From positions 1 through 9,668 of the IMG/VR virus record IMGVR_UViG_2657245500_000002: a stretch of 9,668 nt of DNA; one strand, 5' to 3'. Every line of letters starts with the position of its first letter. The stretch's first letter is position 1. Source of the DNA: a virus. Its lineage: Duplodnaviria > Heunggongvirae > Uroviricota > Caudoviricetes. A model generated the notes under the pieces. That model saw only the letters and a list, made by a program, of their open reading frames with translations, ran no database searches and was not told where the DNA came from. A program made the position numbers and the translations under genes. Shown here piece after piece: positions 1-9,668 of the stretch.

Positions 1-415
1 CGGCTATGCCTGACTTAAGCCGAGCATTTTCCATAAATAGAACTTTTGCCCGCTGTTTTTCTGCTTCAAGCTCAACGCGCAGCTTCCCTACCGTTAGCGC
101 AATATCCTCGTTCTCCTGATCGCGGCTTTTGATGTATTGCAGGTTTCTTTCCCGTTCATCCAGCAGTGCCAGCACGGTAGCCGGGTTAGCCTCTGCTATG
201 AATTCAGCGTTTGCATAAGCCTGAGCATCTGTTTCAATCAGGCAGTTAATATGACATTCCGCAATCACGCCACCGGGTTCTCCTTTCCATTTTTGGCAAA
301 CAAAAACTCCTGTTAAATTGCCGTGCTGGTTAACAGATGTATGCCCTACGATGTAGCTTCCTTTAGTTGCTTTCTCTGCCTTTTCACGCAGTGCCTGATA
401 GTCAATCTTGCTCAC
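1..415 (-). CDS. Ead/Ea22-like prophage protein, N-terminal ~138 codons only (C-terminus lies beyond the window start)
   Basis: Minus-strand frame open from the window edge up to a GTG at ~413-415, preceded by AGGAGG about 6 nt upstream. Hand translation: MSKIDYQALREKAEKATKGSYIVGHTSVNQHGNLTGVFVCQKWKGEPGGVIAECHINCLIETDAQAYANAEFIAEANPATVLALLDERERNLQYIKSRDQENEDIALTVGKLRVELEAEKQRAKVLFMENARLKSGIA. The FIAEANPA..L.LLDERE segment and following coiled coil match what I recall of Ea22-family proteins. Not in the ORF track because it is truncated. Confidence 0.5.
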   Translation of the reverse strand, partial: MSKIDYQALREKAEKATKGSYIVGHTSVNQHGNLTGVFVCQKWKGEPGGVIAECHINCLIETDAQAYANAEFIAEANPATVLALLDERERNLQYIKSRDQENEDIALTVGKLRVELEAEKQRAKVLFMENARLKSGIA

Positions 416-716
416 TGGCTGCCTCCTTTGCCGGGATTTCTAACTTTTGAGTGGTTGTATCAAATTCAAACAACTTAACCACGTCATCAAACAGGACATA
501 ATCACCATCAGGATCTTCAGTCATATCTGCGCCACAATCCTGACCGCACGAGTCGCAACCATCCATATCAAGCTCGTATCGCTTCAGGTTTGCGATATTT
601 GATAAATTCAGCGCCAGTACAGCCAGGTCATAAACCTCTTCGGCAGTGACATCGCTGTTCAGTCCCATTTCATGGCGATATATGATTTTTTCTACTCGTT
701 GTTTTGTGATCGTCAT
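402..716 (-). CDS. Hypothetical acidic protein with CxxC-x3-C cluster
   Basis: ORF track 402..740 (112 aa, TTG-initiated as listed). The in-frame ATG at 714-716 (MTITKQRVEKI...) is the more credible start. Cys cluster DGCDSCGQDCG and strongly acidic C-terminal half. No family recognised. Confidence 0.45.
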   Translation of the reverse strand: MTITKQRVEKIIYRHEMGLNSDVTAEEVYDLAVLALNLSNIANLKRYELDMDGCDSCGQDCGADMTEDPDGDYVLFDDVVKLFEFDTTTQKLEIPAKEAASEQD

Positions 717-746
717 TTTTCTCTTCACTCCGATATACAAGGATTA

Positions 747-986
747 CTACACCCCCTCTGCTGATTGCGCGAGCTGGATCCCCTGGTTCCATGCCGTCAA
801 TTCCGAAGGCTTCGAAAATGCATCCATTGCCTTCTGGCGTTGCTCCTGCTTACGGCGTTTATTCCATTTTTTCATGAACAACAGTGACAGCCATCGTCCG
901 CTGCAGAACATGATGTAGAAATAACCAAGAAGTGCCAGGCCGGTGTTCAGGGCCATATCAATCGTTATCGCCGGGTCAATATTCAC
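747..986 (-). CDS. Small membrane protein (one predicted TM helix, basic tail)
   Basis: ORF track. GTG start at 984-986 with AGGAGG 6 nt upstream; start overlaps the stop of the upstream DUF4406-like gene (976-978). Hydrophobic stretch AITIDMALNTGLALLGYFYIMF followed by KKWNKRRKQEQRQK. Confidence 0.5.
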   Translation of the reverse strand: MNIDPAITIDMALNTGLALLGYFYIMFCSGRWLSLLFMKKWNKRRKQEQRQKAMDAFSKPSELTAWNQGIQLAQSAEGV

Positions 987-1278
987 TGCCCACCTCCTGA
1001 AAAATCACCGCATGGCCCAGTTTCTCCGCCAGTGCCAGCTCAGCCCTTGCACCTGCCGACTGCTGCCAGCCTTTCAGCATGTAAACCGCATCCACGCAAC
1101 GGAGCATTGCCATGCAAATATCCATGTAGTGTGGTTGAGTCAGCCCGTCCGGAAGTACTGCCGGGTTTAAAACGGTATGCCCTTCCCGTTTCAGCGCATC
1201 TTCCGCCCTGTGAAACGCCTCGCGGTTGAAATTTTCATATCCCGTCATCGGACCGGCGATATAAATCCTCACCCTCAC
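976..1278 (-). CDS. DUF4406 / nucleoside 2-deoxyribosyltransferase-like phage protein
   Basis: ORF track. GTG start at 1276-1278 overlaps the TGA of the upstream gene (GTGA), with GGAGG ~8 nt upstream. N-terminal IYIAGPMTG...N...F motif and ~100-aa size match the DUF4406 pattern as recalled (not searched). Confidence 0.65.
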   Translation of the reverse strand: MRVRIYIAGPMTGYENFNREAFHRAEDALKREGHTVLNPAVLPDGLTQPHYMDICMAMLRCVDAVYMLKGWQQSAGARAELALAEKLGHAVIFQEVGSEY

Positions 1279-1529
1279 TCCTGAACCCTCCTGTCGAAAT
1301 AAACGTAGTTATTCACTGCGCCCAACTTCATCCCAAACTTTTCGGCAATTTCCCGTCGGGGTACGCCACGCTGATGCAGTTGCCGCGCCAGCTCAATATC
1401 ACGCTGTGAATATTTTGCCGACGGGTGAAAATCACCCCGTAAAATCATGCTGATACCCAGTTCCCGCGCTTTCGTCCTGACGGCTGACTCACTACGACCA
1501 ATCAGATAACCGATGCTTTCGACTCTCAT
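1275..1529 (-). CDS. Putative small DNA-binding protein (two HTH-like segments)
   Basis: ORF track 1275..1679 trimmed to the internal ATG at 1527-1529 (MRVESIGYLIGRSE...) to avoid a 90-nt overlap with the upstream gene. RBS is weak, so the start is uncertain. HTH-like segments SESAVRTKARELGIS and RREIAEKFGMKLGAVNNYV. Confidence 0.45.
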   Translation of the reverse strand: MRVESIGYLIGRSESAVRTKARELGISMILRGDFHPSAKYSQRDIELARQLHQRGVPRREIAEKFGMKLGAVNNYVYFDRRVQE

Positions 1530-1588
1530 CGTTCCCGCACACTGCCGGAGTATCAGGATTTCAGCCCAGCGCCACTTCTTCCAGCCAC

Positions 1589-2305
1589 TCACCGCTGCTG
1601 CTCTCTGGTGGCGGTAATATCCCGGAGAATATCCCTGTGTTTGTTCAGTTCCCGCAGCGCAGCACAGACTCGCTCCCACTTCTGGACATCACTTTTCGCC
1701 CGGCGCAGCTCGCGGTTAGCCACATGCAGCGATGGTAGAATCAGGTCATCTGCTTTCATTTCGGTGATCGATGGCTGTAACCTCACAATGTCTTCCACGA
1801 TTTCTGTTTTCATTTCTTCCTGTGCCATCATTTCCTGTACTGGTAACGCAACACCTGCTGGCTGAGGAAAGGCTTTACCATCGGTTTCCGCTACGGATGC
1901 AGCTTCCGGCTCTGCCGGTAAATCAGCGCCCGGTATGCAGTAACGAAATTTACCACCCTGATTCACGCGAATCAGACGCCCTTTGCTGATTGCCATGGCC
2001 AGCGATGAATTCGCCCGGCGGGAGGTAATCCCGAACATCAGTGCCAGCTCATCCGCCGTTTGTGGGCCATGTTGTTCAATCGCCTCAGTCAGCATTTGCG
2101 CTGTCACTTTCGGTACCGGTGACACCGGTTCACTTTCACCAGCCTGAATCAGCCACCACATCGAACCCTTGTTATCCGCTTCACCGCGGCGCTTCAGTTT
2201 CCACAGTTCGTTGACCGCATCTTCACGGCTGATTCCAAGGCGGGCCGCCACTACCTGTGAAGAGGCTCTTTTCAGTGCTTTCAGTGCGTCAAATACGGTT
2301 TCCAT
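1589..2305 (-). CDS. DUF1627-like protein with two tandem winged-helix-like segments
   Basis: ORF track 1589..2323 (TTG). In-frame ATG at 2303-2305 with GGAGG 8 nt upstream preferred. Two wHTH-like repeats ([41 protein letters not shown] and [44 protein letters not shown]), acidic linker, coiled-coil C-terminus. Family assignment is recalled, not verified. Confidence 0.55.
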
Positions 2306-2338
2306 TAAAATTTCCTCCGACAAAATCGTTTCTCAGAC

Positions 2339-3001
2339 TCAAATAAAACCAGCTGCCTTCCGGCGTTCGTATTCCTGTTTCAGCCGTTCAATTGGCGTTG
2401 GCCCTTGCGGGTGTTTCGCCCCTTCCAGTTGTCGTCGCACTGGCGGAACACTCATCCCGTTACCAACATGCTTTGCCCATTTCGTCAGTTGCCGTTCCGC
2501 AAGTCGTTTTAACTCACCCTGCGTCATCTGGCGCTCAATCCCTCTGGTACGCATTTCGAGGCAGATGTGGTACAGCACAGGCTGTGGCCACGGGTATTTA
2601 TCACTCCCGTCGTATCGCCAGGATTCATTGCGCCAGCGCCGGTACTCTTCCATCACTGCATCCACCGTAAGACCAAATGGATTTGCCCCACTCTCCGAAA
2701 TCAGTGCAACAAACTCAGCCAGGTCTGGGGGCCACGTTTCACCCGCCCGGCAGCGGTCCATGCACTGACGGCAGACCAGCCGGATTTGCTGTTCAGTCAT
2801 CGTGCCAATCTGGGCAATCCAGAGCTTCGAAGGTGCGGCCCCGTTCTTCTGAGTCCAGCGGTTCGAATACACCTCCCCCATAAGCTCCCACAGCTTCCAG
2901 GCCATTTCCGTTGCTGATAAATCCGTTGTCTCGTTCCCACTGTTCGCGTGCTGCCCGGATTTCCTGAACTGCCCGTGATGCCGTGCCACCTGATGCTGCA
3001 T
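2339..3001 (-). CDS. Replication protein P-like (lambda P family, DnaB helicase loader)
   Basis: ORF track. ATG at 2999-3001 with GGGGG 6 nt upstream. C-terminal two thirds align by eye with lambda P (PPDLAEFVALI vs PSPGQFVAWC; YPWPQPVLYHICLEMRTRGI...ELKRLAERQL vs YPWKSNAHYWLVTNLYQNMRANALTDAELRRKAADEL). The 5' 209 nt overlap the O-like gene out of frame; alternative internal starts at 2905, 2881 and 2800. Confidence 0.7.
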   Translation of the reverse strand: MQHQVARHHGQFRKSGQHANSGNETTDLSATEMAWKLWELMGEVYSNRWTQKNGAAPSKLWIAQIGTMTEQQIRLVCRQCMDRCRAGETWPPDLAEFVALISESGANPFGLTVDAVMEEYRRWRNESWRYDGSDKYPWPQPVLYHICLEMRTRGIERQMTQGELKRLAERQLTKWAKHVGNGMSVPPVRRQLEGAKHPQGPTPIERLKQEYERRKAAGFI

Positions 3002-3830
3002 GGCTTACCCCCTTGCTGACTGGTTTTACCTGTGTCCTGACGTGCTGCACGTGGCGGGCAAATTTCTGCTCCCACTGAACCTGTGTGAAAACCTTCCCCT
3101 CCGCCATCCAGTAATCCCGGAATGCGGCAAGCTCAGCAGGTGTAAATTCCGGCTCAGGCAGAGCCATACCCCACACTGCTGCCCGTTGTCGAAAATCCGA
3201 CGACGGCTGCCAGACAGTAGTCATCGAAAATTTCCCGATCGGTTCGCTCAGGCCGTCCAGGTATTCAGGTTCGGCTGTCTGCAACGGCGCACCATGCGAC
3301 TCACCGGTTGGAGCACTCTCGCGCATGCGCGCGTTATGTGTGGGGTTTAATTCTGTATCTGTATCTTTATCTGTCGTGACTTGTCGTGACAGATGCGTGA
3401 CACGTCGTGACTCATCGTGACAATCAGCATCATATTTCCGCAGCTTTTCGCGCTCCCGCTGCGCTCTCTTGCGCTCTGCCGGGGATTTTGCCGTTTGCGA
3501 AACGTTACCATTGTCCTCTTTCAGCACCTGACGTTTTTCCCATCCGGAAATAAGGTCACCATCCAGAACCCGCCCCTGCATTGCATGCAAAATTGAATCA
3601 ATTACGTCTTCCGTCACATCAAGCGCACTTGCTAAATCTTCCGTCGTGACATCAATGTGACCACGTAGTGACACGCCGTGACATGTCGTGACATTTCGTG
3701 ACGCACTCACCAGAAGGTGGATATACACCGCCATCACTGTTGCGATTGGCTGTCCTGAGACCCTGGCAATGGTTCGCCATTTGGGATCATTTGGCATGTC
3801 ATGCCACAATCTGAGCCAGGCATTAGCCAT
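2793..3830 (-). CDS. Replisome organizer (lambda O-like / YdaU-like replication initiator)
   Basis: ORF track 2793..3836 (GTG). ATG at 3828-3830 with GAGG 5 nt upstream preferred. N-terminus WLRLWHDMPNDPKWRTIA matches the phage replisome-organizer N-terminal domain signature; C-terminal half resembles the DnaT/YdaU-like region. The gene contains the phased repeat arrays listed below. Confidence 0.75.
   Translation of the reverse strand: MANAWLRLWHDMPNDPKWRTIARVSGQPIATVMAVYIHLLVSASRNVTTCHGVSLRGHIDVTTEDLASALDVTEDVIDSILHAMQGRVLDGDLISGWEKRQVLKEDNGNVSQTAKSPAERKRAQREREKLRKYDADCHDESRRVTHLSRQVTTDKDTDTELNPTHNARMRESAPTGESHGAPLQTAEPEYLDGLSEPIGKFSMTTVWQPSSDFRQRAAVWGMALPEPEFTPAELAAFRDYWMAEGKVFTQVQWEQKFARHVQHVRTQVKPVSKGVSHAASGGTASRAVQEIRAAREQWERDNGFISNGNGLEAVGAYGGGVFEPLDSEERGRTFEALDCPDWHDD
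3375..3421. repeat. Iteron-like array A: 5 direct copies of CGTGAC phased at 10-11 bp, inside the O-like gene
   Basis: CGTGAC at 3375, 3385, 3396, 3406, 3416 (spacing 10/11/10/10). Flanked on the low-coordinate side by a TATCT-type short repeat (3351-3372) and on the other by three GCGCTC copies (3449-3478). Encodes residues ~136-152 of the O-like protein. Confidence 0.6.
3645..3703. repeat. Iteron-like array B: 6 direct copies of (C/T/A)GTGAC phased at 10-12 bp, inside the O-like gene
   Basis: CGTGAC at 3645, TGTGAC 3656, AGTGAC 3668, CGTGAC 3678, 3688, 3698. An inverted copy (ccGTCAC) sits near 3613-3618. Encodes residues ~42-62 of the O-like protein. Confidence 0.55.
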
Positions 3831-3898
3831 ACTCACCTCATCTGATACCGAACTTTACCCTCGAACATCCGGAAGAAATCCGGCATGAATATTGTTGG

Positions 3899-4324
3899 TC
3901 AATGCACGACAACAGCATTACCAGGCTGACCACCACTGTTAGTCAGGGTGCCCCAGGCGATCGCCGCTGCGACAAAATCATCCACATCTTTCACCAGCCG
4001 ATCCCTCCGTTCGACGATCTCACGGTAATATTCAGAGCTGTGACTGCGCATACGGGCCACCAGCAGAGGCGGCATTGCCTTTTCGATCGCCGGTAACAGA
4101 GCCTGAATTTTTTCAACAGCATCAGGGGTGTCTTTATCCAGCCAACGGAAAATTTTCTGGGTATTACGAGCCAGGGCTTCCGGATGGCTGTCGTCGTACA
4201 GTTCCGGGAACGTCATTCCCAGCTCGAAATACGCTTTGGTAATTTTCGCAGCCGGTACTTTTTCGCCGTCCGGATGCGCCCAGACATTCATCGCCATGCG
4301 GATGTGTTCATGCTTGATTTTCAT
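3899..4324 (-). CDS. YdaT-like protein (CII-position regulator, toxin-annotated family)
   Basis: ORF track. ATG at 4322-4324 with AGGAG 8 nt upstream. Begins MKIKHEHI and ends VVVH, as recalled for Rac YdaT. Overlaps the cro-like stop by 17 nt. Confidence 0.7.
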   Translation of the reverse strand: MKIKHEHIRMAMNVWAHPDGEKVPAAKITKAYFELGMTFPELYDDSHPEALARNTQKIFRWLDKDTPDAVEKIQALLPAIEKAMPPLLVARMRSHSSEYYREIVERRDRLVKDVDDFVAAAIAWGTLTNSGGQPGNAVVVH

Positions 4325-4589
4325 GAATCAAGCTCCTAGAAAGTGGTTGTGTTAACGTTTTGGTATCTTCCAGCTCGGGCCAAATATTCATCCAATCAAA
4401 AGGCCTTAGTTGCTGACGTGTAACTTCACCATTACTGGCTCGCTCAATAAGGACACATAACGATGCCCCTAACACTTGACCTTTACTCAATGCTTTTCTT
4501 AGATAACCGATGCTGGTATCACACTCGCATGCAAACATACGCTGTTCATCTGACGAAAGAGAATTGAGAAATATTCTTAATTCTTCCAT
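4308..4589 (-). CDS. Cro-like HTH regulator, YdaS family
   Basis: ORF track. ATG at 4587-4589 with AAGGAG 5 nt upstream. Segment LCVLIERASNGEVTRQQLRPFDW matches the YdaS-type motif as recalled. First gene of the leftward operon, divergent from the repressor. Confidence 0.7.
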   Translation of the reverse strand: MEELRIFLNSLSSDEQRMFACECDTSIGYLRKALSKGQVLGASLCVLIERASNGEVTRQQLRPFDWMNIWPELEDTKTLTQPLSRSLIHENQA

Positions 4590-4594
4590 AGCTA

Positions 4595-4689
4595 CTCCTT
4601 AGTAAACACAGCAAAGAATACCCGCAGGTAAACAAAAGTCAATACCCACAGGTTGTTTACCTTGCGGTAATCGCATCTATTATTTACCT
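4595..4689. promoter_or_regulatory. Immunity switch: divergent promoters plus three operator-like palindromes
   Basis: TACC-N4-GGTA-type sites at 4619-4630 (tacccgcaggta), 4643-4654 (tacccacaggtt) and 4658-4669 (taccttgcggta). Leftward promoter: -35 TTGACT (revcomp of 4637-4642), 16-bp spacer, -10 TATTCT (revcomp of 4615-4620). Rightward promoter: -10 TATTAT (4678-4683), weak -35, start site predicted at the A of the repressor ATG (leaderless). Confidence 0.55.
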
Positions 4690-5109
4690 ATGGACAAATA
4701 TGAATTTAGACGACAGCAACTCATCAAAATTCGTGATGAGAAATGCGATGGTAAAGCGGTTAACGTGGCCAGAAAGATCGGGCGCGAGCCTTCTTATGTA
4801 TCAAGAATGTTGTACCCAGAGGGGAAAAAGGGAAAAAAACGGATCGCTGATGATATGGTGGAGATTATCGAAGAGTCCTTTGGGTTACCCCGGGGATGGA
4901 TGGATGGTATCGTTTCATCATCAACGAACACAGCCTCCAGTTATGAAACAAGGGTTCTAACGCCACGACAACGTATTTTTTTAGATCTCTTAGACGAACT
5001 GCCAGAAAGTGAAGCGGATAAATTATTAAAAACTCTTGAAGAGAAAAAACAGTATTACAATATGATCTACGAAGAAATCCGTAAAAAGAAAGCACAAAAC
5101 GCATCATAG
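4690..5109 (+). CDS. Prophage repressor, DicA/RacR-like HTH protein without peptidase domain
   Basis: ORF track. N-terminal HTH (GKAVNVARKIGREPSYVSRML); C-terminal LDLLDELPESEADKLL resembles the DicA ALPESEQD motif as recalled. 139 aa with no S24 peptidase domain. No SD upstream, consistent with leaderless translation. Confidence 0.75.
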   Translation: MDKYEFRRQQLIKIRDEKCDGKAVNVARKIGREPSYVSRMLYPEGKKGKKRIADDMVEIIEESFGLPRGWMDGIVSSSTNTASSYETRVLTPRQRIFLDLLDELPESEADKLLKTLEEKKQYYNMIYEEIRKKKAQNAS

Positions 5110-5152
5110 CTCACCAAACAACTAGTCACCAGTTAAGACACCGCAAAAATTT

Positions 5153-5187
5153 ACCCATAGGTATTTACTTTTTAAATACCTATGGGT
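5153..5187. terminator. Palindromic hairpin (15-bp perfect stem, 5-nt loop) after the repressor gene; probable bidirectional intrinsic terminator
   Basis: acccataggtattta (5153-5167) and taaatacctatgggt (5173-5187) are exact reverse complements. A-tract upstream (aaaaattt), T-rich tract downstream (tccttcttttcat). Lies 44 nt after the repressor stop. Confidence 0.5.
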
Positions 5188-5373
5188 ATCCTTCTTTTCA
5201 TACCAACCCACCCCGCCCCACAGAATGCAGGGCAATACTTCGAGTTACCCGGCAGTGGTCAGGGGTTAAGTAGCCAGCCCGAGGCGTATGAACATGACGG
5301 CGGGAACACTTTGTATAACAGCGCAGCAGGTTTTTGTTCCGCTCCCCCGGCGTTAAGGGGAAATGAGGTCAAC

Positions 5374-5526
5374 ATGGATACTATCGATCTTGGCAACAGC
5401 GAATCTCTGGTATGCGGCGTGTTTCCCAACCAGGACGGCACGTTTACCGCGATGACGTATACCAAAAGTAAAACGTTTAAAACCGAAGCTGGCGCGCATC
5501 GCTGGTTAGCAAGAAACTCCGACTGA
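5374..5526 (+). CDS. YdfA/YdaF-like small protein (50 aa)
   Basis: Internal ATG at 5374-5376 of ORF track 5182..5526, with GAGG 5 nt upstream; the longer listed ORF would start inside the terminator hairpin. Product MDTIDLGNSESLVCGVFPNQDGTFTAMTYTKSKTFKTEAGAHRWLARNSD resembles the ~50-aa proteins encoded next to dicA/racR (recalled). Confidence 0.6.
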   Translation: MDTIDLGNSESLVCGVFPNQDGTFTAMTYTKSKTFKTEAGAHRWLARNSD

Positions 5527-5537
5527 TGAGGTTGACG

Positions 5538-5939
5538 ATGGAATTTAAAGATTTACCAGTACCATTCCAGGAAATGGCATCTAATGTGGTTCGCTCTCAA
5601 CTGGCGACTCTTGACCTGAGTACTGTAGAAAAGGAAACCATCGATACTATATCCGGTAACGTGCGTCGTGCCTTTATAGGTCTGTATGAAGAGAAGCGCC
5701 TATTCGGCGGACAGAATTCGACTGAAAACAAGAATCAAGCAAATGATGAGAAGCTGAAACACATTATCGCCTTACTTTTGGAAGACGCAAAACGTCTACA
5801 GCAACTGGAACCAAATGCAGGCACAGAGGCCCGCATTTGGATTGCCATGAAATCACTCAAATGTGAAAGCAGTGATTATTTCAAAACAACAATTAAAACT
5901 ACTCAACTTTCGGGAGAGCTACTGAAGAAATTGCCATAA
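5538..5939 (+). CDS. Hypothetical protein, 133 aa, no recognisable domain
   Basis: ORF track 5526..5939. ATG at 5538-5540 with GAGG 6 nt upstream preferred (the ATG at 5526 overlaps the upstream stop as TGATG). No TM segment or motif recognised; lower GC than flanks. Confidence 0.6.
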   Translation: MEFKDLPVPFQEMASNVVRSQLATLDLSTVEKETIDTISGNVRRAFIGLYEEKRLFGGQNSTENKNQANDEKLKHIIALLLEDAKRLQQLEPNAGTEARIWIAMKSLKCESSDYFKTTIKTTQLSGELLKKLP

Positions 5940-6093
5940 GAGCATGGTCTTTCTCTTGTTCTGCAAGATGAGCATTAATACCTGCTATGGTTTTTTCAAA
6001 TTTATCTATCTGTTGAATAACAACTTCGCGGTATACGTTTGTATTTGTACCACCAAGCGCAGCCGTTAATGCAGAAAGCATATTTAGTATCAT
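5899..6093 (-). CDS. Small ORF-b (64 aa), translationally coupled to ORF-a
   Basis: In-frame internal ATG (6091-6093) of ORF track 5899..6183, placed 1 nt after the TGA of ORF-a (TGAtATG). Product MILNMLSALTAALGGTNTNVYREVVIQQIDKFEKTIAGINAHLAEQEKDHALMAISSVALPKVE. Its 3' end overlaps the 3' end of the 133-aa gene by 41 nt (convergent). The track's GTG at 6183 directly abuts the SD and is implausible as a start. Confidence 0.35.
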   Translation of the reverse strand: MILNMLSALTAALGGTNTNVYREVVIQQIDKFEKTIAGINAHLAEQEKDHALMAISSVALPKVE

Positions 6094-6094
6094 A

Positions 6095-6178
6095 TCAGTG
6101 CGATATGAAAAGAATCCTGATAGCTTCATCTTGTTTTTCAATAATAGATTGCAGGGCCTCAATTTGCTTTTTATCCAT
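6095..6178 (-). CDS. Small ORF-a (27 aa) with strong SD
   Basis: Below the ORF-track size cut-off. ATG at 6176-6178 preceded by AGGAGG (revcomp of 6184-6189) with a 5-nt spacer. Product MDKKQIEALQSIIEKQDEAIRILFISH looks like an amphipathic helix. TGA at 6095-6097. Confidence 0.3.
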   Translation of the reverse strand: MDKKQIEALQSIIEKQDEAIRILFISH

Positions 6179-6512
6179 TTCACCCTCCTGAGGGTTGGTA
6201 ATTAAGGAGTTCTCCACGGGTCAGGTGGAGTGCGTGCGCCGGACACGGGTGAGCATCCGGCACTGACAGTTTACTGAAAAGGATATATCCCTGAAAAGTC
6301 AGGGCATAACACGAAAGCGCCCGGCGAAGTTAGTCTCTCTGTATAGGTCGTCATTAAATTTTCGTCGACCGCGCGCTTCCGGTTGTGGCACTCCGCGAAA
6401 TGGCGCGGCGGTAAGTATGGCGGGGTTATTCCTTCCCCGTTGAGGACACCGGGTTGTCAGGTTGACCATACGCTTAAGTGACAACCCCGCTGCAACGCCC
6501 TCTGTTATCAAT

Positions 6513-6570
6513 TTTCTGGTGACGTTTGGCGGTATCAGTTTTACTCCGTGACTGCTCTGCCACCCTTTTT
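6513..6570 (+). ncRNA. dicF: DicF small RNA (53 nt plus U-tract)
   Basis: tttctggtgacgtttggcggtatcagttttactccgtgactgctctgccaccc followed by TTTTT matches the DicF sRNA of the Qin dicB operon as recalled. It sits immediately upstream of dicB, as in Qin. Confidence 0.7.
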
Positions 6571-6574
6571 AAAG

Positions 6575-6735
6575 TGAATTTTGTGATGCGGTGAATGCGG
6601 CTATGCGCACGCGGAACAGTTAAAACCGTAAAGTGGTCTTTTACGGGGCGTAACGGGCATCCTTCTGTATTCCGGCGTTAATTGTTAACTGGTTAACGTC
6701 ACCTGGAGGCACCAGGCACCGCATCACAAAATTCA
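6575..6735 (+). repeat. 19-bp perfect long-range inverted repeat bracketing the dicF-dicB spacer
   Basis: 6575-6593 (tgaattttgtgatgcggtg) is the exact reverse complement of 6717-6735, with a 123-nt spacer. The left arm starts 5 nt after the DicF U-tract; the right arm ends 5 nt before the dicB SD (GAGGA 6741-6745). Confidence 0.6.
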
Positions 6736-6752
6736 TTGTTGAGGACGCGATA

Positions 6753-6941
6753 ATGGAAACGTTATTACCAAACGTTAATACGTCTGAAGGTTGTTTTGAT
6801 ATTGGTGTTCTGCTCAGTAACCGGGAGTTTACGGAAGATGCCATTAAGATGAGAAAATATGAACCTTATCTTCTCAATGATAATTCCATACTTTCCAGAA
6901 TTGCCCTTCTTGAACTTGGTATTATCGGAGAACAGCAGTGA
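6753..6941 (+). CDS. dicB: Cell division inhibitor DicB
   Basis: ORF track. ATG at 6753 with GAGGA 7 nt upstream. The 62-aa product METLLPNVNTSEGCFDIGVLLSNREFTEDAIKMRKYEPYLLNDNSILSRIALLELGIIGEQQ matches DicB in length and in the N-terminus as recalled (METLLPNVNTSEGCFEIGV...FTEDAI). Confidence 0.8.
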   Translation: METLLPNVNTSEGCFDIGVLLSNREFTEDAIKMRKYEPYLLNDNSILSRIALLELGIIGEQQ

Positions 6942-7126
6942 CTTCAGCATTTGCACTGGTGATGACCGTTTTTCTTATAACGGGTGAGCCACAAAATGTG
7001 ATTACCGGAATTTATGACAGTAAGTCATCCTGCATTCAGGTAAGGGACGAACAAAAAATCCCCGGTGAATGCCTCCCGTTAAAAAAAGTATCGCTGAACC
7101 TGAATAACGAAATACCGGCTGGATAA
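6938..7126 (+). CDS. ydfD: YdfD-like small membrane protein (lysis protein family in Qin)
   Basis: ORF track. GTG start overlaps the dicB stop (GTGA at 6938-6941). 62 aa with an N-terminal hydrophobic segment (SAFALVMTVFLITG). Assignment rests on position, size and features, not a verified alignment. Confidence 0.55.
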   Translation: MTSAFALVMTVFLITGEPQNVITGIYDSKSSCIQVRDEQKIPGECLPLKKVSLNLNNEIPAG

Positions 7127-7221
7127 CCCGCCAGCCATATTAACGCCATACCAACGGATTAAAAATGCCAGCAATGGCAGGGATTCGTTCACCCTGAAAT
7201 CTGTAATGAGGTTAAAACAAA

Positions 7222-9668
7222 ATGAGTAAAGTCTTTATTTGCGCCGCTATTCCTGACGAACTGGCAACAAGGGAAGAAGGCGCTGTGGCTGTAGCCACAG
7301 CCATTGAAGCTGGCGACGAACGCCGTGCTCGAGCAAAATTTCACTGGCAATTCCTGGAACATTATCCGGCTGCTCAGGACTGCGCTTATAAATTTATTGT
7401 CTGCGAGGATAAACCCGGCATACCCCGCCCTGCCCTCGATTCCTGGGATACCGAATATATGCAGGAAAATCGCTGGGATGAGGAGTCAGCTTCCTTTGTA
7501 CCGGTCGAACCTGAATCCGATCCGATGAACGTCAATTTTGACAAGCTGTCCCCTGAAGTACAGAACGCAGTCCTGGTTAAATTCGACACATGCGAAAACA
7601 TCACCGTTGATATGGTGATTAGCGCACAGGAATTACTACAGGAAGACATGGCAACATTCGGCGGACATATCGTTGAAGCGTTTATGAAAATGCCAGAAGT
7701 TAACTCCATGTATCCTGAACTTAAACTGCATGCCATCGGGTGGGTTAAGCATAAATGTGAGCCTGGCGCTAAATGGCCTGAAATTCAGGCAGAGATGCGC
7801 ATCTGGAAAAAACGCCGCGAAGGTGAACGCAAGGAAACCGGAAAATACACGTCTGTTGTTGATCTCGCCCGTTCCAGAGTAAACCAACAGAACACTGAAA
7901 ACGCTGCTGAAAAAAACGGAGCTGTCACTGTTGCCGTTCGCCGCGAATACAAACAGACATGGAAAACTCTCGACAATGAGCTGGCCTGCGCCCTCTGGCC
8001 CGGTGATGTGGATGCGGGAAACATTGACGGCAGCATCCATCGCTGGGCAAAAAATGAAGTTATCGACAACGACCGCGAAGACTGGAAGCGTATCTCGGCA
8101 TCAATGCGCAAACAGCCTGAAGCACTTGGCTATGACCGTCAGACTATTTTTGGCCTTGTCCGTGAACGTCCGATCGACATTCACAAAGATCCCGTGGCGC
8201 TGAACAAATACATCACTGAATACCTGACTACAAAGGGCGTGTTTGAAGATGAAGGAACAAATCAGAGCACAACTAATACTCTCCCGTCGCCAGTACCAGA
8301 AGCTGATGCAGTGGAAACGGCAATGCCGGACAACGAAAAAACCGAATGCAAAGTGGAAGTCGAACCATCTGTAGAGCGTGAGGGGCCGTTCTACTTCCTC
8401 TTCACCGACAAGGATGGCGAAAAATACGGTCGCGCAAACAAACTTTCTGGTCTGGATAAGGCGCTGGCTGCCGGGGCAACTGAAATCACGAAAGAAGAAT
8501 ATTTTGCCCGCAAAAACGGCACATACACAGGTTCACAACAAAATACTGATGCATCTGACACGACCGCACAACCAGACCTGGTAAAAGTTACCGCTGACGA
8601 AGTAAACAAAATTATGCAGGCAGCCAGTATCAGCCAGCCTGACGCCGATAAGTTGCTTGCTGCCTCTCGCGGAGAATTTGTTGCAGGGATTAGCGACCCG
8701 AATGATCCGAAATGGGTAAAGGGGATTGAAACCCGCGATTCTGTGCACCAGAACCAGTCAGAAACGGAACAGTACGACCAAAAAGCGGAACAAAACAGCC
8801 AAAATGCGTTACAAAACGAGCCAGAAACGAAACAACCTGAACCAGTAGTGCAACAGGAACCGGAAAAGATCTGCACCGCCTGCGGTCAGACCGGCGGCGG
8901 CAACTGCCCTGATTGTGGCGCGGTGATGGGCGACGCAACATACCAGGAAACATTCGATGAAGAGTATCAGGTTGAAGTTCAGGAAGATGATCCGGAGGAA
9001 ATGGAAGGCGCTGAACATCCACACAAGGAGAATGCTGGCAGCGCTCAGGATCACGCCAGCGATAGTGAAACTGGCGAGACGGCAGATCCCTTAATTACGG
9101 TGAACGGTCATCACGTTATCACATCCACCAGCAGGTTTTGGCACCATCTGATGATTGACCTTGAAACAATGGGCAAAAATCCTGATGCCCCGATTATCTC
9201 AATAGATGCAATATTTTTCGATCCGCAAACCGGAGATATGGGACCGGAATTTAGTAAGACTATCGATCTGGAAACTGCTGGCGGAGTCATTGATCGGGAC
9301 ACCATTAAATGGTGGCTTAAGCAATCACGCGAAGCGCAATCTGCCATTATGACCGATGAAATCCCGTTAGATGATCCGGAGGAAATGGAAGGCGCTGAAC
9401 ATCCACACAAGGAGAACACTGGCGGCAATCAGCATCACAATAGCGATAATGAAACTGGCGAGACGGCAGATCCCTTAATTACGGTGAACGGTCATCACGT
9501 TATCACATCCACCAGCAGGTTGTGGCACCATCTGATGATTGACCTTGAAACCATGGGAAAAAATCCTGATGCCCCGATCATCTCAATAGGTGCAATATTT
9601 TTCGATCCGCAAACCGGAGATATGGGACCGGAATTTAGTAAGACTATCGATCTGGAAACTGCTGGCGG
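7222..9668 (+). CDS. YdfE/RecE-like large exonuclease-family protein, 5' portion (at least 815 codons, no stop in window)
   Basis: Frame open from ATG 7222 (in-frame TAA at 7213-7215, GAGG 10 nt upstream) to the window end; absent from the ORF track because unterminated. N-terminus MSKVFICAAIPDELATREEG. Contains CxxC-x7-CxxC (8872-8916) and, from ~9100, a DnaQ-like DEDD Exo I motif (HHLMIDLETMG). Position after dicB-ydfD corresponds to ydfE of Qin or recE of Rac; the nuclease core lies beyond the window. Confidence 0.6.
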   Translation, partial: MSKVFICAAIPDELATREEGAVAVATAIEAGDERRARAKFHWQFLEHYPAAQDCAYKFIVCEDKPGIPRPALDSWDTEYMQENRWDEESASFVPVEPESDPMNVNFDKLSPEVQNAVLVKFDTCENITVDMVISAQELLQEDMATFGGHIVEAFMKMPEVNSMYPELKLHAIGWVKHKCEPGAKWPEIQAEMRIWKKRREGERKETGKYTSVVDLARSRVNQQNTENAAEKNGAVTVAVRREYKQTWKTLDNELACALWPGDVDAGNIDGSIHRWAKNEVIDNDREDWKRISASMRKQPEALGYDRQTIFGLVRERPIDIHKDPVALNKYITEYLTTKGVFEDEGTNQSTTNTLPSPVPEADAVETAMPDNEKTECKVEVEPSVEREGPFYFLFTDKDGEKYGRANKLSGLDKALAAGATEITKEEYFARKNGTYTGSQQNTDASDTTAQPDLVKVTADEVNKIMQAASISQPDADKLLAASRGEFVAGISDPNDPKWVKGIETRDSVHQNQSETEQYDQKAEQNSQNALQNEPETKQPEPVVQQEPEKICTACGQTGGGNCPDCGAVMGDATYQETFDEEYQVEVQEDDPEEMEGAEHPHKENAGSAQDHASDSETGETADPLITVNGHHVITSTSRFWHHLMIDLETMGKNPDAPIISIDAIFFDPQTGDMGPEFSKTIDLETAGGVIDRDTIKWWLKQSREAQSAIMTDEIPLDDPEEMEGAEHPHKENTGGNQHHNSDNETGETADPLITVNGHHVITSTSRLWHHLMIDLETMGKNPDAPIISIGAIFFDPQTGDMGPEFSKTIDLETAG
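8986..9668 (+). repeat. In-frame tandem duplication, 384-bp period, within the large exonuclease-like ORF
   Basis: Copy 1 is 8986-9369; copy 2 starts at 9370 and is cut by the window end. About 95% identical over the 299 bp visible, with differences clustered at ~9030-9065 versus ~9414-9449. Each copy encodes DDPEEMEGAEHPHKEN...HHLMIDLETMGKNPDAPIISI.AIFFDPQTGDMGPEFSKTIDLETAGG. Confidence 0.8.

Follow-up and report, generated by a model that had tools for sequence, protein, structure and literature searches.

ORF133, a two-hairpin protein with a YmfJ-type head encoded between ydfA and dicF in a Qin-type prophage of Escherichia coli

The locus and its prophage

The window analysed here is a stretch of 9,668 nucleotides (nt), positions 1 to 9,668 of the virus record IMGVR_UViG_2657245500_000002, and the gene under study is ORF133, an open reading frame (ORF) of 133 codons on the plus strand that extends from an ATG at 5538 to a TAA at 5937-5939. 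A sequence-only reading had described a 133-codon ORF with a good ribosome-binding site at this position, and the coordinates 5538-5939 and a GAGG Shine-Dalgarno sequence, 6 nt 5' of the ATG, are confirmed. ORF133 is the RefSeq coding sequence WP_001625307.1, a 'hypothetical protein' of E. coli JE86-ST05 (100% identity). As also described previously, it lies directly 3' of the repressor gene (4690-5109) and a ydfA-like gene (5374-5526), with its ATG 11 nt past the ydfA stop codon. An alternative ATG at 5526 overlaps this stop codon and would extend the protein by MRLT only; because every homologue opens with MEFKDLP, sequence comparison indicates that the true start is likely the ATG at 5538.

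The window matches the JE86-ST05 prophage sequence with 100% identity, and its plus strand is 'leftward' in lambda terms. This prophage is lambdoid and integrated beside yccA. The window represents a Qin-type dicA-dicF-dicB immunity and early-left region. Read on the plus strand, replication genes and a ydaT-like gene (both on the minus strand) are followed by a cro/YdaS-like gene (minus strand) and the repressor gene, and then by ydfA, ORF133, a convergent small ORF (minus strand), the DicF RNA, dicB, a ydfD-like DUF1482 gene, a RecE-like exonuclease gene and an integrase gene. The features of the region, with lengths in amino acids (aa), are:

4308..4589, minus strand: cro/YdaS-like regulator (DicC/Cro equivalent), divergent from the repressor; phrog_35 transcriptional repressor, E 8e-22
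4619..4669, no strand assigned: OR-like operator cluster over divergent promoter-like sites; TACCCGCAGGTA (4619), TACCCACAGGTT (4643) and TACCTTGCGGTA (4658)
4690..5109, plus strand: prophage repressor, 139 aa; phrog_5736 transcriptional regulator, E 6e-70
5152..5188, no strand assigned: OL-like operator pair, two perfect, mutually reverse-complementary 12-mers, TACCCATAGGTA and TACCTATGGGTA
5199..5373, plus strand: 5' leader of the ydfA operon, common to prophages of different immunity type; 93% identity to locus L002 from exactly 5199
5374..5526, plus strand: ydfA (DUF1391), first gene of the dicB-type early-left operon; Pfam DUF1391, E 1.9e-28
5538..5939, plus strand: ORF133, soluble all-alpha protein of ~15 kDa; WP_001625307.1, phrog_1363
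5899..6178, minus strand: convergent small gene, a pseudogene in the window; phrog_18692, 92 aa when intact; AGGAGG 7 nt before the ATG at 6178
6193..6513, plus strand: dicF 5' precursor leader, conserved with K-12 Qin (homology comparison), right edge of the variable cassette
6514..6565, plus strand: DicF small RNA; Rfam RF00039, full length, 70.1 bits against a gathering score of 48
6753..6941, plus strand: dicB cell-division inhibitor; Pfam DicB, E 3.7e-38
6938-7126, plus strand: ydfD-like DUF1482 gene after dicB; Pfam DUF1482, E 2.8e-15

With a GC content of 41.8%, ORF133 is AT-richer than ydfA (49.7%) and the dicF leader (54.2%). The earlier description of ORF133 as AT-richer than its neighbours thus holds for these two, but not for the repressor gene, which is about equal (40.7%), or for the convergent ORF, which is AT-richer (36.8%).

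The cro-like gene has a weak Pfam YdaS_toxin match and is labelled 'transcriptional regulator' in RefSeq. The C-terminus of the repressor is weakly DicA-like (NCBIfam DicA, 24.5 bits over residues 86-136, below the cutoff). As in DicA, the repressor is short (139 aa) and lacks an S24 peptidase domain, and for this reason prophage induction probably proceeds via an antirepressor instead of RecA-mediated cleavage. The repressors in other ORF133-carrying prophages are LexA-like (238 aa) or of the HTH_3 type (120-130 aa). ydfA shares 90% DNA identity with its K-12 counterpart. In DicF, the 3' arm of the terminal stem carries a G-to-A change (…CUGCCACCC, versus …CUGCCGCCC in the Rfam DicF consensus), and one non-canonical pair results. 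In the JE86-ST05 host genome (L001, locus 1-1700), the annotation marks DUF551, ead/Ea22-like and DUF4752 genes as frameshifted or partial; the prophage seems to be in decay.

Modules, relatives and selection of ORF133

ORF133 is a small, soluble, non-enzymatic two-hairpin protein. AlphaFold2 (AF2), run with a 48-sequence alignment, gives two confident hairpins at residues 8-55 and 63-108 (predicted local distance difference test, pLDDT, ~85-93) and a disordered linker, with a predicted template modelling score (pTM) of 0.39. Module A comprises helices 8-23 and 32-55 (pLDDT 85-93) and module B helices 63-90 and 94-108 (pLDDT 88-92). In this model, ORF133 is predicted to consist of two independent helical-hairpin modules on a flexible linker. 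No transmembrane segment was detected in ORF133 (maximum Kyte-Doolittle value over a 19-residue window 0.38; grand average of hydropathy -0.47), and the protein, with an isoelectric point of 6.6, is predicted to be soluble. Its parts are:

5538..5693, plus strand: module A, residues 1-52 (MEFKDLP...FIGLY), helical hairpin head; phrog_6937, phrog_2151 and phrog_9419 match residues 1-64 only
5742..5867, plus strand: module B, residues 69-110, YmfJ N-terminal domain, helical hairpin with an EPNAGT loop; phrog_30817, phrog_12693, phrog_32391 and phrog_2982
5868..5936, plus strand: C-terminal tail, residues 111-133; pLDDT 45-47; overlapped in antisense by the 3' end of the convergent ORF

The earlier statement that ORF133 has no recognisable motif stands. 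Searches of Pfam, NCBIfam and PADLOC with ORF133 gave no significant match, PDB sequence searches with two profiles gave no match to the ORF133 family, and Foldseek against PDB and BFVD recovered only its own uncharacterised relatives. When 43 family members were searched against Pfam for informative fusions, only scattered chance matches were obtained, and a literature search by protein accessions and PHROG ids found nothing. ORF133 is already catalogued as a hypothetical protein (phrog_1363) in an uncharacterised family with a K-12 member; what is new is only the fusion of an A head to a YmfJ head. The full-length phrog_1363 profile matches residues 1-131 (profile positions 1-126 of 139; E 1.6e-44), while the further PHROG matches fall separately on residues 1-64 and 69-117, every one of them to a family of 'unknown function'.

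An exhaustive HMMER search of 1.84 billion representative proteins returned only 107 relatives, all of at most 208 aa. These split in two, with A-head-only proteins on the one hand and, on the other, proteins that have the B motif ('MNExELKHVIALLLEDAKRLQQxEPNAGTEARIW') as their own N-terminus. The A head is common to many small phage proteins with differing C-termini. For the B-head profile, the commonest form is a complete standalone microprotein of 47-50 aa, present in prophages of Klebsiella, Enterobacter, Salmonella, Citrobacter, Yersinia and other genera. ORF133 has the family-invariant D, P, N and T of the B-head alignment. However, its B motif starts at residue 69, after the A head and linker, and not at the N-terminus, whereas the motif starts at residues 2-5 or behind a short extension in the 76 other B-family members collected. 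The tails on the two heads are diverse (at least 42 clusters among 108 tails of at least 25 aa), with one tail type on both heads. The C-terminal tail of YmfJ (…VYHDTMVKALRIELDGL…) is also found on a protein with the unrelated 'MEFKDLP' head (proteins P0161, P0168 and P0191; K-12 YmfJ). Because the same tail occurs on both heads, the heads are interchangeable on one tail.

Of two ideas about this architecture, one was rejected: the A and B heads, which MAFFT had aligned together, are not distant paralogues (hhalign probability <1%). The other, a fusion of an adjacent A-gene and B-gene, is unsupported, the gene before the B-gene in POCJ13 not being of the A family; no tandem A-B locus was found.

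The chimeric structure could also signify that ORF133 is a functionless recombination scar, that is, an in-frame junction of fragments kept only through lying in a transcribed operon. Module B is normally the N-terminus of separate proteins, the homology between alleles breaks inside ORF133 at approximately codon 54, and the host prophage, with several frameshifted genes, appears to be decaying. What speaks against a scar is the conservation of the reading frame and of both modules. The ratio of nonsynonymous to synonymous substitution rates (dN/dS) falls at 0.2-0.35 in both halves (0.21 and 0.34 versus alleles with 12-13% amino-acid divergence, both halves alike), both modules fold confidently in AF2, the full-length frame is kept in alleles down to 84-88% identity and is intact at nearly all of ~69 independent viral-contig loci, and 168 of 5,426 complete E. 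coli genomes (~3%) carry the ORF133-specific part. EPEC E2348/69 has a copy with 99.6% identity. These comparisons point to purifying selection on ORF133, and the low dN/dS together with the intact frame at ~69 loci argues that it is a real gene and not a chance ORF. We therefore regard a scar as very unlikely.

Kinship with YmfJ and cassette exchange between ydfA and dicF

Residues 69-108 of ORF133 share 75% identity over 40 residues with residues 2-41 of YmfJ (b1144) from the e14 prophage of K-12 (E 2e-20); judged by this alignment, the B head corresponds to the N-terminal domain of YmfJ. Like ORF133, YmfJ is functionally uncharacterised. The two proteins differ in that the YmfJ domain is internal in ORF133, behind the unrelated 'MEFKDLP' head, and in that ORF133 lacks the YmfJ tail. 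In e14, ymfJ lies directly 3' of the repressor gene ymfK on the same strand and converges on ymfI (b1143) with an overlap of 63 nt, ahead of ymfH-xisE-intE. The two loci are similar in that ymfJ and ORF133 both belong to the repressor-proximal part of an early-left operon, and in that a convergent small gene overlaps the 3' end, by 63 nt in e14 and by 41 nt in the window. By contrast, the convergent partner of ORF133 is unrelated to YmfI and a pseudogene in the window.

In K-12, induction of ymfJ comes late in the SOS response, alongside that of intE and ymfM (log2 fold change 4-4.8; PMC11002266). In a K-12 dam mutant, ymfJ is the most up-regulated gene, and it belongs to the e14-induction gene set. 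K-12 RNA sequencing data list a convergent transcriptional overlap, an 'excludon', at ymfI-ymfJ (PMC12288877). The published ymfJ data represent the behaviour of a gene that is repressed in the lysogen and on upon induction.

The convergent pairing of a YmfJ-head gene with a YmfI-like gene, their 3' ends overlapping, is conserved in phages of Aeromonas, Klebsiella, Yersinia and E. coli:

YmfJ-head/YmfI-like pairs: L006 3995-4522; L019 4001-4428; L024 4001-4430; L026 (K-12 e14) 4498-5085; L097, L100-L104, L106

The partners of standalone B-head genes from one Aeromonas phage and from Klebsiella and Yersinia prophages are mutual homologues (41-52% identity) that belong to phrog_8894 and match the NCBIfam 'YmfI family' weakly, below the cutoff. 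In the Aeromonas phage, the pair lies beside the repressor gene, and in the Klebsiella and Yersinia prophages its place is between the lysis and terminase genes; given these varied genome positions, it behaves like a mobile module of two genes. A YmfI-like partner, with an overlap of 4-30 nt, is present at eight of 11 standalone B-head loci on viral contigs. ydfA is located just 5' of the B-head gene at six of the 11, five of which also have a YmfI-like partner. Thus, a canonical ymfJ-like/ymfI-like cassette can occupy the ydfA-dicF slot, and ORF133 represents an allelic variant of this cassette.

Comparison with other prophages bears out the earlier suggestion that cassettes are swapped at this slot. 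Homology to K-12 Qin covers ydfA (5336-5519) and resumes at 6193; therefore, 5520-6192 replaces ydfB-ydfC. Like ydfB and ydfC, ORF133 occupies the interval from ydfA to the dicF leader in the same operon, and all three encode small uncharacterised proteins, but ORF133 has no sequence similarity to either. In some other prophages, the ORF133 cassette lies behind ydfA-ydfB-ydfC, not in place of ydfB-ydfC. In alternative alleles, the first ~53 codons of ORF133 are retained but lead into other C-termini (DNA break at ~5697); the alleles become homologous again at ~6175, where the convergent gene has its start codon. At 5698-6174, comparison with L007, L008, L011, L014 and L018 reveals at least five unrelated small minus-strand genes at one position. 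These genes encode proteins of 92, 57-61, 73, 91 and 77 aa, and each, preceded by a Shine-Dalgarno sequence of its own, borders on the conserved dicF leader. Because they are antisense to the early-left operon, they are better candidates than ORF133 for lysogen-expressed cargo. A scan combined with a multi-allele alignment gave nothing convincing as a minus-strand promoter for the convergent gene.

ORF133 had also been suggested to work with the convergent ORF, which overlaps it by 41 nt. Alignment with the intact copy in L002 reveals that the convergent gene of the window is frameshifted by an additional T in a T-run at ~6108; the phrog_18692 matches are split over two frames, and RefSeq annotates just a 76-aa remnant. 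The phrog_18692 gene is independently frameshifted in L009 (-1 A) and in four of 54 viral loci. ORF133 is partnered by phrog_18692 at 54 loci and by an unrelated 61-aa gene at 15 loci. Homology of the convergent partner in the window to the Aeromonas partner or to YmfI-like proteins was considered and rejected, no similarity being detected. The two ORFs likewise do not look like a toxin-antitoxin pair: Pfam and NCBIfam searches gave no toxin-antitoxin family match for either, there is no obligate co-occurrence, and the partner is repeatedly frameshifted while ORF133 is intact. Because the partner is frameshifted or swapped while ORF133 stays, ORF133 does not depend on its neighbour, and the suggested cooperation is weakened accordingly.

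The same evidence bears on the broader proposal that ORF133 is half of a two-gene module with the antisense gene, either an 'excludon' switch or a toxin/antidote-like pair. B-head genes nearly always have a convergent small gene over their 3' end, YmfI-like at 8/11 standalone loci; the pair is kept across Aeromonas, Klebsiella, Yersinia and E. coli e14 at different genome positions; K-12 RNA sequencing data list ymfI-ymfJ among convergent excludons (PMC12288877); and the two ORFs of the window overlap by 41 nt. However, the partner at ORF133 loci is not YmfI-like but either phrog_18692 or the unrelated 61-aa gene and so assorts independently of ORF133, it is frameshifted in the window, in L009 and at 4/54 viral loci while ORF133 is intact, and no minus-strand promoter was found. 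We consider such a module rather unlikely, and the same holds for the mechanism it would entail, in which PL-driven transcription or the head protein would counteract a lysogen-expressed partner.

Regulation of the slot and the role of ORF133

The motif TACC-N4-GGTA has seven matches in the window versus 1.65 expected, and seven were reached by 0/200 shuffles. Three matches lie between the cro-like and repressor genes, in the OR-like cluster with its promoter-like sites at 4656-4683 (plus strand) and 4642-4615 (minus strand), and the OL-like pair matches these three. The motif is the putative operator of this immunity type. The two OL-like copies (5152-5163 and 5177-5188) sit between the repressor stop codon (5109) and ydfA and fold as a 16-bp hairpin with a T-run behind it, which may also serve to terminate the repressor transcript. 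The immunity-specific sequence stops at 5198, and the shared leader and ydfA follow from 5199. The 175-nt leader (5199-5373) was considered as a structured RNA such as a put-like element, and this was rejected (z = +0.74, no Rfam match). Scans detected no promoter-like site in 5200-5540 and no plus-strand terminator between ORF133 (5939) and dicF. ydfA (5374-5526), ORF133 (5538-5939), DicF (6514-6565) and dicB (6753-6941) are co-oriented and contiguous, with flanks homologous to K-12 Qin. Because ORF133 lies 11 nt past ydfA with no promoter-like site before it and no plus-strand terminator before dicF, it should share the regulation of the ydfA operon.

In L002, the same ORF133 lies behind a different, LexA-like repressor. 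There, a strong intrinsic terminator stands behind the repressor stop codon, ahead of a TTGACT promoter and then the shared leader with ydfA, and the promoter is overlapped by an operator (GTAACTCTTGTTAC) that matches the OR operator of this prophage (GTAACAATAGTTAC). In K-12, the homologous ydfA-dicF-dicB operon is transcribed from dicBp 5' of ydfA, a promoter described as PL-like; deletion of dicA increases dicBp activity 22-fold, and processing of the polycistronic ydfABC-dicF-dicB RNA made from dicBp releases DicF (PMC10448788). In phages of the Stx, Shigella, Aeromonas and E. coli groups, genes with an A or B head run in the same direction as N, kil, gam/bet/exo or dicB. The operators, the L002 layout and the dicBp experiments in K-12 together argue that ORF133 lies in a PL-equivalent, repressor-controlled early operon and not in a rex-equivalent slot.

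The sequence-only reading had placed ORF133 in just such a lysogeny-expressed slot, equivalent to that of rex or sieB. This placement is contradicted by the operators and the terminator-like hairpin that intervene, and by the explicit terminator, promoter and operator of L002. What truly corresponds to the rex slot is the stretch from the repressor gene to ydfA, which in the window is empty (5110-5151, 42 bp). In other prophages with ORF133, it holds HigB/HigA (L007, 2897-3561) or PaaA2/ParE (L009, 2681-3152).

The function that went with this placement was superinfection exclusion or anti-phage defence, with ORF133 expressed in the lysogen, together with the repressor or from its own promoter, like rexAB or sieB. 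BstA is an example of lysogeny-expressed cargo beside a repressor. Similarly to rexA/rexB, sieB and other repressor-adjacent cargo, ORF133 lies near the immunity region on the repressor strand, and it is AT-rich like horizontally acquired cargo. Moreover, the operon already encodes DicB, which has a protective side-effect, being reported to block ManYZ-using phages (PMC6832061), and the K-12 operon has low-level and subpopulation expression (PMC10448788). However, rexAB lies between cI and the PL operators and is co-transcribed with cI, whereas ORF133 lies beyond the operators in a repressed operon, separated from the repressor gene by a hairpin with a T-run and, in L002, by a clear terminator. 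There is no promoter-like site before ORF133, the prototype ymfJ is induction-specific, and the true rex-like slot is elsewhere, with toxin-antitoxin cargo in relatives. Also, ORF133 has no PADLOC match, no Pfam SieB or Rex match and no homology to RexA, RexB or SieB, and lacks a membrane segment, unlike SieB and RexB. We conclude that a role in lysogenic defence is quite unlikely. The accompanying proposal of host modulation is plausible, but for an early lytic gene and not for a lysogenic one.

Based on these data, we suggest with moderate confidence that ORF133 is an early-expressed accessory gene of a PL-type ('dicB-type') early-left operon and acts by binding other proteins. In this model, the transcript would start at an operator-controlled promoter just 3' of the repressor gene and carry ydfA, ORF133, DicF and dicB. 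Judging from the sequence and the K-12 analogues, ORF133 would be off in a stable lysogen, or on in a small subpopulation only, and would be switched on when the repressor is inactivated. By analogy to its class, the protein would then stoichiometrically bind a host or phage protein in early lytic development, and its two heads might bridge two partners. Kil, cIII and Gam are early-left products of lambda. Like these proteins and DicB, ORF133 is small, non-enzymatic and encoded in a PL-type operon, with expression predicted on derepression; its layout predicts co-transcription with DicB and DicF. ORF133 has no sequence or fold similarity to any of these proteins, all its PHROG matches being to families of 'unknown function', and the likeness is an analogy of class, not membership.

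Several points weigh against this interpretation. We infer the binding mechanism only from the size, fold and neighbourhood of ORF133, and the inter-module arrangement in the AF2 model is unreliable (pTM 0.39). The candidate promoter, TTTACT (5164-5169) and TATCCT (5187-5192) with a 17-nt spacer over the second operator, was read by eye and scores 8/12, below the scan threshold. Furthermore, the repressor of the window is not DicA, unlike in K-12, and the K-12 operon is not fully silent: DicF builds up in stationary phase, and spontaneous derepression occurs in ~1% of cells (PMC10448788). By analogy, some lysogen-level expression of ORF133 is conceivable.

A more far-reaching idea is that YmfJ-head microproteins, together with the antisense genes just downstream, represent an 'induction switch' cassette that is mobile and widespread among Enterobacterales phages. 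Its antisense cargo, whether YmfI-like or one of several alternatives, would be expressed in the lysogen, for instance as an exclusion or defence factor, and PL read-through and the head protein would silence or neutralise it at prophage induction; ORF133 would be a two-headed variant able to engage two partners or targets. We consider this scheme improbable. If true, it would amount to a new class of module for prophage self-immunity or anti-defence, and K-12 ymfJ/ymfI would be a tractable model of it.

Returning to ORF133 as an accessory gene of the early-left operon, the result is mainly corrective. Because ORF133 lies in a repressed early-left operon and lacks a defence signature, it is not a priority as a lysogenic defence candidate. 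At the same time, an anonymous 'hypothetical protein' of ~3% of E. coli genomes is now tied to ymfJ, a K-12 y-gene that can be studied directly. The ydfA-dicF interval emerges as a hotspot of cassette exchange, where heads are conserved, tails can be swapped and at least five antisense genes without mutual relationship occur, and ymfJ-like and ymfI-like genes as a convergent pair conserved across genera. This pair, together with the antisense-cargo hotspot, is the more interesting lead and is testable in K-12. Should the small proteins turn out to act in host takeover or anti-defence, the polymorphism of heads and tails would make this interval a compact arms-race locus within an operon that already controls cell division through DicF and DicB.

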